Below are positions 7,884-12,872 of a stretch of 64,000 nucleotides of DNA, in pieces; the first letter of the stretch is position 1, and each line of letters opens with the position of its first letter. The stretch is from assembly GCF_988243305.1 (NCBI RefSeq), contig NZ_OZ547136.1; one strand, given 5' to 3'. Below the pieces are notes generated by a model. It saw only the letters and a program-made list of their open reading frames with translations. It was not told where the DNA came from and searched no databases. A program made the translations under genes and the position numbers.

Positions 7884-7921
7884 TCGATGTAAGTAACTTC
7901 AAGCCTATAATTCTTGAAGAT

Positions 7922-7954
7922 AAAAAACCCTCTGTAGTAACAGAGGGTTTTGTT
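7922..7954 (+). terminator. Rho-independent terminator downstream of yfgI
   Basis: Stem ccctctg(7928-7934)/cagaggg(7941-7947), 6-nt loop, followed by ttttgtt; an A-run precedes the stem, so it could act bidirectionally. Confidence 0.7.
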
Positions 7955-8210
7955 CATTCATAGTGCAGGGATCAAAATCATTCCCACTCAGCTATCAATG
8001 AGAAAATAAAATATAAATAAATCAATGCCTTGAAACAAACCACTTAGCAGATACCACGAAAAATACCATGTCTCAATAATAGAGCTGTCTACAGGCTGTT
8101 CAGACGAACAATATGGCCGCTCTACTCCTAATAGAGTCCTTAGCTCGGTCACATCACTAATTTCAACATAGATGTGAACAAAATGAGGCATCAACGCACC
8201 TATTCAGTTA

Positions 8211-9725
8211 GTGTATTTGATATCGTATGTGGCAACAAAAAATGGAGTTACAATCTTGAAAGTAAGCGAGTTATCTAGCCAAATTGGCCGACTTTACGGC
8301 TTAAACAACATCAACATAATTATGGGCCGAAACGGTGCGGGAAAAAGTCGTTTCCTTCGTGATATCGAACAAACAATCAGCCAGAACAAGCAGCAATTTT
8401 ATGTCCGGTATGTAAGTCCAGAGCGAGCAGGATCGTTCAAGCGTGATGGCACCGTCCTCACAAATATGAGCGACAACCCCGAATGGCTGAGGCACACTCG
8501 GGCAGTTAATCAGGCAAGCAACTTCAAAGCTGCATCGGCTATGCTATTTCGCGAGGCCGAGACGCTTTACTTACGTCGACTTGCCAATACTCCGGAAATT
8601 CGAACTGATCTAACGCGAAACTTTCAGACAGACCGATTAAGTAAAATTAATCAGCTTCTCACTAACATTTCGCTCGAGATGGGTAATGTCGATTATGAGT
8701 TTCGATCACTTGTAGATGGTCAGATTATTGATCCGGCCCAAATCAGTAGCGGTGAATCGGAAGCGGTTGCATTAGCCGCGGAAATCATCTATTTCTTCGA
8801 CACAATAGATCCGGAGAAATTCAACGTACTCCTCCTCGATGAGCCTGATGTACATCTGCACCCCGACCTCCAAGCTAGACTGGGCAAGCTGATAATCAGT
8901 ATGCTCGACGAATTTAGAACACACGCGAACAGTATTGCCATATGCTTATCCACCCATAGTTCCCCGCTCGTCTGTTCTCTTGCCGCCTCCCCATATGTAT
9001 CAATCGGCACGAAGAGCTTTGCAGTGAATGAAATCTCATTGATACCGGCCAGCGATGAACTTCGAAAGATTGCACCATTCTTCGGGCACCCCCTATCGCT
9101 TTCTCTTAGCGAAGACGCTGCATTAATTTTGGAAGGAGAGGACGACGAACGAGTCTGGCAACAAGCGGCCAGAACATCACAGGGTCGAATAAAAATCTTT
9201 CCCGTACTAGCAGGTAGCGTAGATCAACAGAGTCAACTTGAGGATTTTTGCGTAGACCTCCTTAGTACACTCTATGACAATCCAATCGCCTTTTCCCTTC
9301 GTGATGGCGATGGTGTAATCAACGAGTCGCTTGAACATCGCCTACCTCTTAAACGCTATCGCTTACGATGCTACGCTATCGAAAATGTTCTTTTGACTGA
9401 TTCATGCCTTGCAGTAATGAATGTTACATGGGTGGAATTTGTAGACGCAGCCAAAAAATGGGTTGAGGATAATCAAACACACTCCGACATAGCGTTGATT
9501 GCAGAACTAATGGAATCGAACGACCGATTGCGTCACAAGAAGATCAAGAAAATCCGCCAACTCGTCTGTGCTATTGTTGAGTGTAAAAAACCTTGGGAGG
9601 TAGTAGTTGGACAAGCAATCGGGGCATTGACCAGAGAAGACCTTGAAAACTCGAATATGTTGATCGATTTTCTTGGAGGAGAGATGGTCAGCGACGTCAT
9701 CTTCAGGGACGCAATAAACCCATGA
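8211..9725 (+). CDS. ABC-type ATPase (AAA_21/AAA_15-like) fused to a TOPRIM/DUF4435-like domain; OLD/PARIS/Gabija-like candidate defence nuclease
   Basis: 504-aa ORF. Walker A GRNGAGKS (8325-8348), ABC-signature-like ISSGESEAV (about 8742-8768), Walker B/D-loop VLLLDEPDVHLHPD (about 8836-8877), H-loop LSTHS. C-terminal region has ILEGEDDERVW (about 9125-9157), a DxD motif FSLRDGDGV (about 9291-9317) and YAIENVLL (about 9371-9394), consistent with an OLD-type TOPRIM/DUF4435 fold. The likely true start is the TTG at 8256, which has a GGAG Shine-Dalgarno 8 nt upstream; 8211 is an upstream in-frame GTG with no RBS. The locus is AT-rich. Confidence 0.6.
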   Translation: MYLISYVATKNGVTILKVSELSSQIGRLYGLNNINIIMGRNGAGKSRFLRDIEQTISQNKQQFYVRYVSPERAGSFKRDGTVLTNMSDNPEWLRHTRAVNQASNFKAASAMLFREAETLYLRRLANTPEIRTDLTRNFQTDRLSKINQLLTNISLEMGNVDYEFRSLVDGQIIDPAQISSGESEAVALAAEIIYFFDTIDPEKFNVLLLDEPDVHLHPDLQARLGKLIISMLDEFRTHANSIAICLSTHSSPLVCSLAASPYVSIGTKSFAVNEISLIPASDELRKIAPFFGHPLSLSLSEDAALILEGEDDERVWQQAARTSQGRIKIFPVLAGSVDQQSQLEDFCVDLLSTLYDNPIAFSLRDGDGVINESLEHRLPLKRYRLRCYAIENVLLTDSCLAVMNVTWVEFVDAAKKWVEDNQTHSDIALIAELMESNDRLRHKKIKKIRQLVCAIVECKKPWEVVVGQAIGALTREDLENSNMLIDFLGGEMVSDVIFRDAINP

Positions 9726-9740
9726 GAATGACCTGATACT

Positions 9741-10136
9741 ATGACCACGATTGATCCGCCCTCATGGTATCAGTATTTATTTTATAACCCGCCTCTCAAT
9801 ACACCAAGAGATTGCGGTAAAGTGGAGCAGCATGATTACCAGCTTTATCTGGCGATAAATGATATTGAGCATACGAAAACGAAAGCAATGTCATCTAAGA
9901 CCAATAGTATCTGCGAGCAGTTCCATAAAACGATACTGAACGAGTTTTATCAGGTGACGTTCCGCAAAAAGTTATATGATGATCTTGAAGCATTACAATC
10001 GGTTCTTGATGAATGGCGGGTTCACTATAATAATGAGCGAACCCATCAGGGAAAAATGTGCAGTGGCCGAACGCCGATGGAAACGTTACTTGATGGAAAG
10101 CACATCTGGGATGAGAAAAACTTAAGCCAGATGTAA
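9741..10136 (+). pseudogene. truncated DDE (rve/integrase-core) transposase remnant, 3' end only
   Basis: 131-aa ORF whose C-terminal ~85 aa (KTNSICEQFHKTILNEF...YNNERTHQG...GRTPME) match the C-terminal part of integrase-core DDE transposases (IS481/IS3-like), including the catalytic-E region. The N-terminal DD part is absent and the first ~50 aa look unrelated. It begins 16 bp after the ATPase stop. Confidence 0.55.
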
Positions 10137-10229
10137 TCTGACAGATACCTTTATAAATAGCCGGTAATTGTCAGATCAGGTCTGATCTTATACAACTTAA
10201 CTGTGTTATGAGCAATACTGAGGATAGAT

Positions 10230-11000
10230 ATGGAACCAGAGAAATTTGCTGAAACTGCAATAGGATTTACCAAAAGCCCTCTTGGTATCATTGCACTCTT
10301 TATTGTTCTCGTTTATGGATTTGCCTCTTTCGTCGTTGGCTTTGGTAATGGCTTATCAGAGCATATAGCTCCCCTTATTTATTTCATGGTTTTCTTTCCT
10401 GTCATTGTGTTTCTTGGCTTTCTCTGGCTTGTTGCGAAACATCATAATAAGCTTTACGGGCCGTCAGATTTCAAAGATGAAAATAATTTTTTAAGAGCGC
10501 AAATAGCTACAGCAGCATCATTGACCGCCGCCACAGCAAAACAGCCTGAAAATAGTGCAGGGGTCACTGAAAGCCAACTGCGAAAAATCGTCAACGTTGT
10601 ATCCAATGCAAAACGGCAGAGTAAGCATGAAAAATGGCGAAATCGTATTTTATGGGTGGATGATCGACCAGAAAATAATGTTTACGAAAGACAGGCATTT
10701 GAGGCACAGGGAATAGAGTTCGCTTTAGCTCTTTCAACTGACGAAGCCTTAGAATTGTTAAAAACAAATAAGTTTGCAGCTATTATTTCGGATATGGATC
10801 GCAAAGAAGGGGCGCAAGAAGGTTATGTCTTACTAGAAAGATTACGCGCAATGGGAGACAAAACTCCTTTTATGATCTATGCGTCCTCAGATCTACCAGA
10901 GCACAAGAAAATGGCGAGAGAAAGAGGTGCAATTGGCTCCACTAATCGAGCAGAAGAACTCTTTCAAATTGTCATGGGTGCGATTACCAATGGCTCATAA
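10230..11000 (+). CDS. membrane-anchored protein with C-terminal CheY-like receiver (REC)-like domain
   Basis: 256-aa ORF with SD GAGGA upstream. Two predicted TM helices (IIALFIVLVYGFASFVVGF; LIYFMVFFPVIVFLGFLWLV). The C-terminal ~120 aa follow a (beta-alpha)5 pattern with receiver-like acidic positions: ILWVDD at the end of beta1, AIISDMD at the end of beta3, FMIYASS at the end of beta4. The beta5 lysine is not obvious. Confidence 0.45.
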   Translation: MEPEKFAETAIGFTKSPLGIIALFIVLVYGFASFVVGFGNGLSEHIAPLIYFMVFFPVIVFLGFLWLVAKHHNKLYGPSDFKDENNFLRAQIATAASLTAATAKQPENSAGVTESQLRKIVNVVSNAKRQSKHEKWRNRILWVDDRPENNVYERQAFEAQGIEFALALSTDEALELLKTNKFAAIISDMDRKEGAQEGYVLLERLRAMGDKTPFMIYASSDLPEHKKMARERGAIGSTNRAEELFQIVMGAITNGS

Positions 11001-11214
11001 CAAAGCCATTAAATTCGCCCCCTACGGCTACGGTTGCCGGGCGCTCACAACGGCCAGTATCTCATTTGTCGATTTGATCGATCTCATTGTAAGCACTTCC
11101 GGCTAGACTATTTTGGAATACCGCCATTTTGTTGGTAATGGCTTTTATCTTTAGGCCATAGCCGATGTTATAGAGTTACGGCCTTAAAAATAGAAGTCAT
11201 ACACTCAATGAAAA

Positions 11215-11250
11215 ACCAATAAAAAATGCCAGTCAGCAAACTGACTGGCA
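11215..11250 (-). terminator. Rho-independent terminator downstream of guaA
   Basis: Inverted repeat tgccagtcag(11227-11236)/ctgactggca(11241-11250) with loop caaa; on the minus strand it is followed by a U-run (complement of the A-run 11211-11226). Confidence 0.7.
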
Positions 11251-11294
11251 TTAAAGTTAGTTGGAAAGGCTTAATTTACTATTTATAGCCAGTC

Positions 11295-12872
11295 CTACTC
11301 CCACTCAATGGTAGCTGGCGGCTTGCCGCTGATGTCATACACCACGCGGGAAATACCGTTCACTTCATTGATAATGCGGTTGGAAACGCGACCGAGGAAG
11401 TCATACGGCAGGTGCGCCCAGTGTGCGGTCATAAAGTCGATGGTTTCGACAGCACGCAGAGAAACAACCCAGTCATACTTACGACCATCGCCCATTACGC
11501 CAACAGAACGTACTGGCAGGAAGACGGTGAACGCCTGGCTGACTTTGTCGTACAGGTCCGCTTTACGCAGTTCTTCAATGAAGATGGCGTCAGCACGGCG
11601 CAGCAGGTCACAGTACTCTTTCTTCACTTCACCCAGAACACGAACGCCAAGGCCTGGTCCCGGGAACGGGTGACGGTACAGCATGTCGTACGGCAGGCCC
11701 AGCTCCAGACCAATCTTACGCACTTCGTCTTTGAACAGCTCTTTCAGCGGTTCAACCAGGCCCATCTTCATCTCTTTCGGCAGGCCGCCCACGTTGTGGT
11801 GAGATTTGATGACGTGTGCTTTACCGGTTGCAGAAGCAGCAGATTCGATAACGTCAGGGTAGATAGTGCCCTGCGCCAGCCACTTCACGTCTTCCAGTTT
11901 CAGCGCTTCTTCATCGAATACTTCAACGAAAACGCGCCCGATGATTTTACGTTTTGCTTCCGGATCATTTTCGCCAGCCAGCGCTGACAAGAAGCGATCT
12001 TCTGCCGGTACATGAACAATGTTCAGACCAAAGTGATCGCCAAACATATCCAGAACCTGCTCTGCTTCGTTGAGACGCAGCAGGCCGTTGTCGACGAATA
12101 CGCAAGTCAGGTTTTTACCGATAGCGCGGTGCAGCAGCATTGCAGTCACGGAGGAATCCACGCCACCAGAGAGGCCGAGGATCACTTTATCGTCGCCTAC
12201 CTGCTCGCGGATGCGAGCTACGGCGTCGTCGATAATTTTCGCTGGCGTCCACAGGGCTTCACACTGGCAGATATCACGCACAAAACGCTCCAGCATGCGC
12301 ATACCCTGGCGGGTGTGAGTCACTTCCGGATGGAACTGTACACCATAGAAGCGTTTTTCTTCGTTAGCCATAATGGCAAACGGGCAGCTTTCGGTGCTGG
12401 CTACGGTGACGAAGTCGGACGGGATAGCGGTAACTTTATCGCCGTGGCTCATCCAGACATCGAGCAGCGGTTTACCGTCTGCAGTCAGCGCATCTTCGAT
12501 ACCGCGAACCAGTGCGCTGTCGTTTACGACTTCAACCTGCGCGTAGCCAAATTCACGTTCGTTAGAGGCTTCAACGTGACCGCCCAACTGCATTGCCATG
12601 GTCTGCATGCCATAGCAAACGCCGAATACCGGTACGCCTGCTTCAAAGACATACTGCGGCGCACGCGGGCTGTTTTCTTCGGTGGTGCTTTCCGGGCCGC
12701 CGGAAAGAATAATGCCGCTTGGGTTGAAGTCACGAATTTGTGCTTCTGTCACATCCCACGCCCACAGTTCGCAGTAAACACCCAGTTCACGCACGCGGCG
12801 CGCAACCAGTTGAGTGTACTGAGAACCGAAGTCCAGAATGAGGATGCGATGCTTATGAATGTTTTCCGTCAT
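11295..12872 (-). CDS. guaA: GMP synthase (glutamine-hydrolysing)
   Basis: 525-aa ORF. N-terminus [36 protein letters not shown], class-I glutamine amidotransferase plus ATP-pyrophosphatase domain (SGGVDSSV), C-terminal PATIEWE. Confidence 0.97.

Follow-up and report, generated by a model that had tools for sequence, protein, structure and literature searches.

A perfect palindrome upstream of a membrane receiver-like gene lies in the right-hand terminal repeat of a truncated IS481-family element

In insertion sequences (IS) with a DDE transposase, the enzyme recognises the terminal inverted repeats (IRs) and cuts at the terminal ...CA-3', and the tips of these repeats typically read TGT in the IS481 family. 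Elements of the IS1, IS2 and IS10 type carry -35 boxes in their IRs, and the ends of IS10, IS50 and IS903 are known to be under Dam control. Integron gene cassettes are usually transcribed from the integron Pc promoter. Imperfect inverted repeats can be made perfect by templated correction, in the process of quasi-palindrome template-switch mutagenesis. In Bordetella, IS481 activates flanking genes through transposase read-through and through hybrid promoters with the -35 box in the IR, and its dedicated Pout points outward at the left end rather than the right (PMC6161684). We analysed a stretch of DNA of 64,000 nucleotides (the window), in which an earlier note had described a perfect 7-bp inverted repeat about 40 bp before the start codon, at 10230, of a gene for a membrane receiver-like protein. 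Three readings had been offered there, namely an operator for a dimeric regulator, a small hairpin, or a vestige of an IS terminal repeat. The features concerned are as follows.

9813..10194, + strand: truncated IS481-family insertion sequence, 3' 382 bp left, identified by blastn against the intact copy at locus L002
10169..10194, + strand: right terminal inverted repeat (IRR), TGTCAGATCAGGTCTGATCTTATACA, matching the IRR of the intact copy at L002:2857-2882
10173..10188, no strand: perfect 7-bp inverted repeat AGATCAG-GT-CTGATCT, internal to the IRR

The arms of the palindrome, AGATCAG (10173-10179) and CTGATCT (10182-10188), are exact reverse complements separated by the 2-bp spacer GT, in the surrounding sequence ...ggtaatTGTCAGATCAGGTCTGATCTTATACAactta..., and 41 bp separate its end from the ATG at 10230. 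Both the repeat and its distance from the gene were thus as the earlier note had described them. The palindrome contains two GATC sites (10174-10177 and 10184-10187), 10 bp apart. Repeats of this kind (perfect, 7 bp, 2-bp spacer) number 4 in the window, compared with 3.9 ± 1.9 in first-order Markov simulations; since the bare palindrome is not enriched, its significance had to be sought in its context. With all spacers from 0 to 10 counted, the window holds 93 perfect 7-bp repeats versus 46.7 ± 8.0 in the Markov simulations, an approximately twofold excess that arises chiefly at spacers 8 and 10 and presumably represents terminators or REP-like elements. A search for further copies of the motif, as the note had proposed, found no second site for the 16-mer in the 64-kb window with up to 3 mismatches allowed.

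The palindrome is located wholly within a 26-mer (10169-10194) that differs at 2 positions from the consensus IRR of an IS481-family element, where the chance expectation is 0 matches. With window positions 9726-10229 as the query, IS481-family transposase genes were retrieved in 605 E. coli genomes, and the matches cross the palindrome and stop at query positions 469-478, corresponding to window positions 10194-10203. When four independent insertions are aligned, they agree almost completely as far as ...ATACA (window 10194), and the similarity is lost at the next base. Because homology among independent insertions stops after 10194, positions 10169-10194 constitute the IRR of the element, which upholds the third reading of the note, the vestige of an IS terminal repeat. 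The family IRR is shared in species-representative genomes, where it was found in 95 stretches with 97 distinct downstream flanks; at the ends of related elements, where the note had also suggested looking, the palindrome region thus recurs as the IRR in 97 distinct insertions.

An intact relative of 1,201 bp is present in strain ET245 (L002:1682-2882). It contains a single transposase ORF of 346 aa (L002:1784-2824; WP_134906117.1), which scores 282.8 bits on NF033577 transpos_IS481 (cutoff 224), and is bounded by a left terminal inverted repeat (IRL), TGTATTAGTCGCGACTTGATCTGACA (1682-1707), and an IRR, TGTCAGATCAAGTCTGAGCTAATACA (2857-2882), both of 26 nt, imperfect and 85% complementary. A 7-bp target duplication, GATAAAG, lies immediately outside both ends, which fixes the length of the element at 1,201 bp; this duplication is seen at the L002 copy, the left end of the window copy being deleted. 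The relative shares with the IS481 family a DDE transposase encoded by a single ORF, with an HTH at its N-terminus followed by an rve core, imperfect 26-bp IRs with 5'-TGT...ACA-3' tips, and a short (7 bp) target-site duplication, and it is only distantly related to the prototype IS481 of Bordetella pertussis. RefSeq records leave the IR of this widespread enterobacterial element unannotated, and the coordinates given here may be of use for annotation. The 26-bp IR, TGTCAGATCA(A/G)GTCTGA(G/A)CTAATACA, was also observed in elements with quite different interiors from Gamma- and Betaproteobacteria and from some MAGs (loci L009-L103). Some of these loci carry the ...GTCTGAACT form at both ends, and another group has a direct subterminal repeat, CTGTCAGATTTGAT; they may represent several IS481-family subgroups, or non-autonomous derivatives using one transposase site.

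Unlike a full IS481-family element, the window copy consists of the last 382 bp, with one IR and without a functional transposase. Window positions 9813-10194 are 88.5% identical to L002:2501-2882 (blastn), and the missing parts are the IRL and ~820 bp, including the N-terminal two-thirds of the transposase with its DNA-binding part. RefSeq labels positions 9813-10136 as "integrase core domain-containing protein, incomplete", and this fragment keeps an rve_3 domain (39.3 bits). No IRL and no second IRR were found in the 64-kb window, and only one place in the source genome matches the IS query, indicating that the remnant is single-ended and immobile. The ORF at 9741-10136 (131 aa) begins in non-IS DNA and therefore has a chimeric N-terminus. 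An inverted repeat, CTGATACTATGA (9733-9744) and TCATGGTATCAG (9762-9773), begins 8 bp past the stop codon of the preceding AAA ATPase gene; it is 11/12 complementary with a 17-nt loop, is followed by TATTTATTTTAT, and could be a terminator.

The remnant forms part of an island, in which the following features were delimited.

7978..11307 (interior 7991-11294), no strand: island of ~3.3 kb at the 3' end of guaA, by comparison with the K-12 empty site
8211/8257-9725, + strand: AAA_15/AAA_21 ABC-type ATPase, by domain match
10195..10229, + strand: leader of 35 bp between the IS end and the ATG, a comparatively conserved non-coding segment
10230..11000, + strand: gene for a 256-aa protein with N-terminal transmembrane (TM) helices and a C-terminal receiver-like domain (Pfam Response_reg, 32.1 bits)

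The island carries the AAA ATPase gene, the IS fragment (9813-10136) and the 256-aa gene, and the order of the locus is yfgG-yfgH-yfgI, island, guaA-guaB-xseA; in K-12, the yfgI-guaA spacer is 92 bp. Direct repeats of the guaA terminus, TCATTCCCACTCA (7978-7990) and CTACTCCCACTCA (11295-11307), with the core TCCCACTCA, flank the island, and the island copy gives guaA the last codon GAG (K-12 GAA) and the stop codon TAG (K-12 TGA). No integrase gene was found in the island. The window is E. coli DNA, its positions 7900-11300 being 100% identical to O169:H41 strain Res13-Lact-PER13-34 (NZ_CP062824), and the island is carried by 27 of 5,426 complete E. coli genomes, in all cases with at least 99.5% identity; another strain bearing it is UPEC132 (NZ_CP040456). 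Kluyvera and an uncultured contig (L111) also have this site occupied, as do the loci of a protein cluster that bears the name Klebsiella pneumoniae. In a second uncultured contig, which bears a relaxase gene (L105), another element, encoding KAP NTPase and relaxase, comes after the repeat, an arrangement that suggests tandem accretion at an integration hotspot.

The AAA ATPase resembles anti-phage ATPases (PADLOC PDC-M01A, 1.1e-17; AriA, 3e-15; further matches to PtuA and GajA). No recognised partner gene was found for it, PADLOC reporting nothing for the receiver protein. The ATPase gene is absent from the Kluyvera and L105 islands and is split by an IS3 element in L116, a locus of the Klebsiella pneumoniae-named cluster. 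An obligate defence pair of the ATPase and the TM-receiver protein was considered and rejected, as PADLOC matches the ATPase only and homologues of the receiver gene occur without an ATPase neighbour.

The gene downstream of the IRR is named "response regulator" in RefSeq. Its product has two TM helices at the N-terminus, and its receiver domain seems, by eye from the sequence, to be without the canonical Lys. The 2,177 homologues of the protein occur in varied contexts and are solitary. The leader begins with 11 nt of a former upstream attC or attI (ACTTAACTGTG), followed by the cassette boundary, G10205|TT; an R'-like core, GTTATGAGC, lies at 10205-10213, 17 nt before the ATG, and a ribosome-binding site, GAGGA, at 10220-10224. 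An R'' core, GCTCATAAC (10993-11001), spans the stop codon and is the exact reverse complement of GTTATGAGC. The same R''/R' relation was found in unrelated contexts (L112, L108 and L109/L110). In Vibrio cyclitrophicus (L110), the gene is situated in an array of six VCR-like 121-nt repeats with cassette spacing, beside toxin-antitoxin cassettes, and L112 has a textbook attC ending in GTTAGGC, with a hairpin of -31 kcal/mol (z -6.1). The locus thus resembles integron gene cassettes in its complementary cores, its short leader and its homologues in a Vibrio array and with a textbook attC. It differs from them in that the 3' half of the window attC (gene and attC span to ~11060) is degenerate (z -1.3), the IS end cuts into the upstream recombination site, and no integron integrase gene (intI) or attI was found nearby at the window locus. 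By these sequence features, the TM-receiver gene is a stranded (fossil) integron gene cassette, and the "response regulator" annotated beside the IS fragment in the small guaA-linked island can be recorded as such.

With the context of the palindrome defined, the symmetry itself can be considered. The family consensus IRR, TGTCAGATCAGGTCTGAGCTAATACA, gives AGATCAG-GT-CTGAGCT, which is 6/7 symmetric with an A/G clash. The window lineage has T for the consensus G at 10186 (G>T), yielding the perfect palindrome. A plasmid copy (L007) is perfect through the other arm (AGCTCAG/CTGAGCT), and this A>C variant of arm 1 is found in L007, L013 and L070. A scan of one genome per species for TGTCAGNTCANGTCTGANCTNATACA gave the 97 distinct insertion events, among which 51 have the 6/7 consensus, ~40 have further mismatches (N2=A, N3=A, N1=G), and 4 are perfect. 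The perfect cases consist of one island lineage with the T variant, which is confined to this lineage among the 97 insertions, and three with the C variant.

Perfection was thus reached by two independent routes (G>T in arm 2 and A>C in arm 1) that are superficially compensatory, which speaks against an accident and could hint at an advantage of symmetry. However, no covariation was found among the variable positions of the palindrome in the 97 insertion events. Across 22 diverse right ends that were aligned, pairing fails at the central position in 20 and at the innermost in 9, and the covariation score of the palindrome is below the shuffled mean. Compensatory evolution, which the plasmid copy had suggested, was rejected on the basis of the broken central pair and the lack of covariation in the events sampled. 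The changes are reminiscent of quasi-palindrome template-switch mutagenesis, in that one substitution in the mismatched pair, whichever arm it falls in, gives perfection, and it is possible that the G>T change at 10186 arose by such templated correction, although shared descent or chance is equally compatible with the counts. Compared with the IRs that characterize the IS481 family, the perfect internal palindrome is private to the lineage of the window copy. The alignments show it to be a private variant of an intrinsically quasi-palindromic, putative transposase site.

To examine conservation of the module, other genera were used for comparison, since all 27 E. coli copies of the gene belong to the same island and offer no independent contexts. 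The same IS remnant, with the junction ATACA|ACTTAACTGTG, is present in Kluyvera sichuanensis (L104), where the module again lies beside guaA, and in the two uncultured contigs L105 and L111, and the proteins are 90-91% identical. The shared remnant and junction indicate that remnant and gene form an old module, and their linkage is kept across E. coli, the Klebsiella-named loci, Kluyvera and the relaxase-bearing contig. In these three modules, the gene shows 93-94% nucleotide identity to the window, and most of its changes fall at third codon positions. Of the non-coding parts of the module, the leader is one of the better preserved (89-97% in pairwise comparisons); the spacer and leader on either side of the IRR have 89-91% identity, the non-coding DNA downstream has 84%, and the fragment of the dead transposase has 78%. 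Conservation is lowest in the IRR, with 77-81% identity to the window and 69% between L104 and L111. The palindrome has decayed to the type AGTTCAG-AT-CTAATCG (4/7) in L104 and L105 and to AGATTAG-GT-CTTTTCT (5/7) in L111, and both GATC sites are gone in L104 and L111. No IS end was found upstream of homologues with 77-85% identity in Dickeya, Pseudomonas, Acidithiobacillus, Vibrio and metagenomes. As the IRR is decayed or absent while the gene is kept, the motif is dispensable for the gene, and a conserved operator is ruled out; the operator reading thereby fails the refutation test set in the note itself.

For a palindrome that sits inside an IRR, belongs to a member of the IS481 family and is not conserved, we consider it very probable that it is a by-product of the IRR of a truncated copy, its symmetry being unselected and without a demonstrated role in gene control. 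In the live element, the 26-bp IRR would have been the site that the DDE transposase recognises and cuts at ...CA-3', as expected from general knowledge of such enzymes. Loss of the left end and of ~820 bp, including the DNA-binding part of the transposase, would have left the IRR an immobile relic, and in the island lineage one G>T change at 10186 would have turned the 6/7 quasi-palindrome into a perfect one. The perfect dyad symmetry appears to be a lineage-specific accident that is not conserved. The feature is an ordinary mobile-element relic of a known kind; it shows that an operator-like palindrome before a gene can be the inner part of a transposon repeat, and serves as a reminder to check for IS ends before inferring regulation.

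A different reading is that the IS right end supplies transcription of the downstream gene, with the palindrome merely in the promoter spacer. We regard this as rather unlikely, whether in the form of a hybrid promoter with its -35 box in the IRR or of read-through from inside or upstream of the remnant. The cassette gene, with ~24 nt between the boundary and the ATG, probably has no promoter of its own, and as the cassette boundary lies just 11 nt beyond the IS end, transcription would have to arise in the IS remnant, pass through it, or originate still further upstream. The junction between remnant and gene is kept across several genera, and T at 10168 (C>T), read from the sequences as particular to the island lineage, creates TTGTCA. 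By eye, TTGTCA (10168-10173), a 17-bp spacer and TACAAC (10191-10196) make up a weak candidate promoter with 5/6 and 4/6 matches. The locus resembles IS-derived hybrid or outward promoters in having an IS end within 35 bp of a gene of the same orientation and a -35-like TTGTCA at the inner IR edge. It differs from them in that no convincing -10 box is present, TACAAC being without the critical final T. A sigma-70 consensus scan gave no site with at least 9/12 matches overlapping 10100-10229, and the nearest match (TTGATG-N17-AATAAT, 10006-10034) is inside the dead transposase gene. The Kluyvera copy reads TTATCA, the element's own Pin is deleted, and any read-through transcript would include a strong hairpin at 10128-10184, all of which argue against this reading. 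Supply of transcription is the only route by which the palindrome region might matter. The IS remnant may supply transcription of the gene, and, given the lasting attachment of remnant to gene and the comparatively good conservation of spacer and leader, a portion of the right end may have been recruited, for instance to transcribe an originally promoterless cassette; if the remnant does drive the gene, it would add one more case of IS-mediated activation of a promoterless cassette.

It is improbable, in our estimate, that the dead 382-bp remnant went further and was domesticated as the promoter or regulatory region of the cassette, possibly in a Dam-sensitive manner. Under this proposal, the cassette would have been stranded in the guaA-linked island without an integron Pc, and two changes in the lineage would have followed, C>T, giving TTGTCA, and G>T, giving the second GATC site together with the perfect palindrome. 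If true, domestication would account for remnant and gene having stayed together as they spread through several genera.

We think it highly improbable that the palindrome is an operator bound by a dimeric transcription factor controlling the TM-receiver gene, a role proposed in the earlier note. In favour of this role, the palindrome has perfect dyad symmetry 41 bp before the start codon, and perfect forms arose twice in the IS family. However, the motif belongs to a transposon end that is older than its position here, and it matches at 4-5 of 7 positions in orthologous modules with an intact gene and is absent at more distant homologous loci, the gene being conserved throughout. In addition, the palindrome is not statistically unusual, has no second copy in the window at up to 3 mismatches, and has no DNA-binding regulator gene accompanying it in the island.

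Extremely improbable, too, is a Dam-methylation switch, in which the GATC sites at 10174-10177 and 10184-10187 would make expression of the gene or binding of the transposase epigenetically variable: the first site is kept in most family IRRs and in the IRL, but the second is limited to this lineage, L104 and L111 have neither, and the element is defunct in the window. To our knowledge, no binding protein is known.

That a small hairpin or cruciform has a function, be it attenuation or termination at the RNA level or a structural one in DNA, is likewise extremely improbable, and this proposal of the note fell with the following observations. On its own, the 16-mer can adopt a stem of 6 bp closed by a loop of 4 nt (-4.5 kcal/mol, z -2.0), only 6 pairs forming because a 2-nt loop is too short for a hairpin. 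In context, however, arm 1 pairs with 10136-10144 in a structure of -22.8 kcal/mol that out-competes the small hairpin. The small hairpin is followed by UAUACAAC, without a U-tract, and was not reported by a terminator scan of the + strand; its pairs are broken in most family members, with no covariation. The competing structure corresponds to the following feature.

10128..10184, no strand: long subterminal inverted repeat, with arms at ~10128-10149 and 10163-10184

This repeat pairs the stop-codon region of the transposase with the inner half of the IRR, using arm 1 of the palindrome. Its RNA fold has a z of -4.45 at -22.8 kcal/mol, and that of the intact copy reaches -27.2 kcal/mol (z -6.3). 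Conserved RNA structure was considered for this hairpin and rejected, as RNAalifold did not recover it and explicit pair counting in the 22 right ends gave no covariation beyond shuffles. Pairing is nevertheless kept at 88.5% across these diverged right ends, compared with 13-30% in slid controls; such pairing without covariation points to a conserved, DNA-level inverted duplication of the inner IR motif. On the minus strand, the repeat is followed by a U-rich tract, and it may act either as a second site for the transposase or as a terminator that faces inward.
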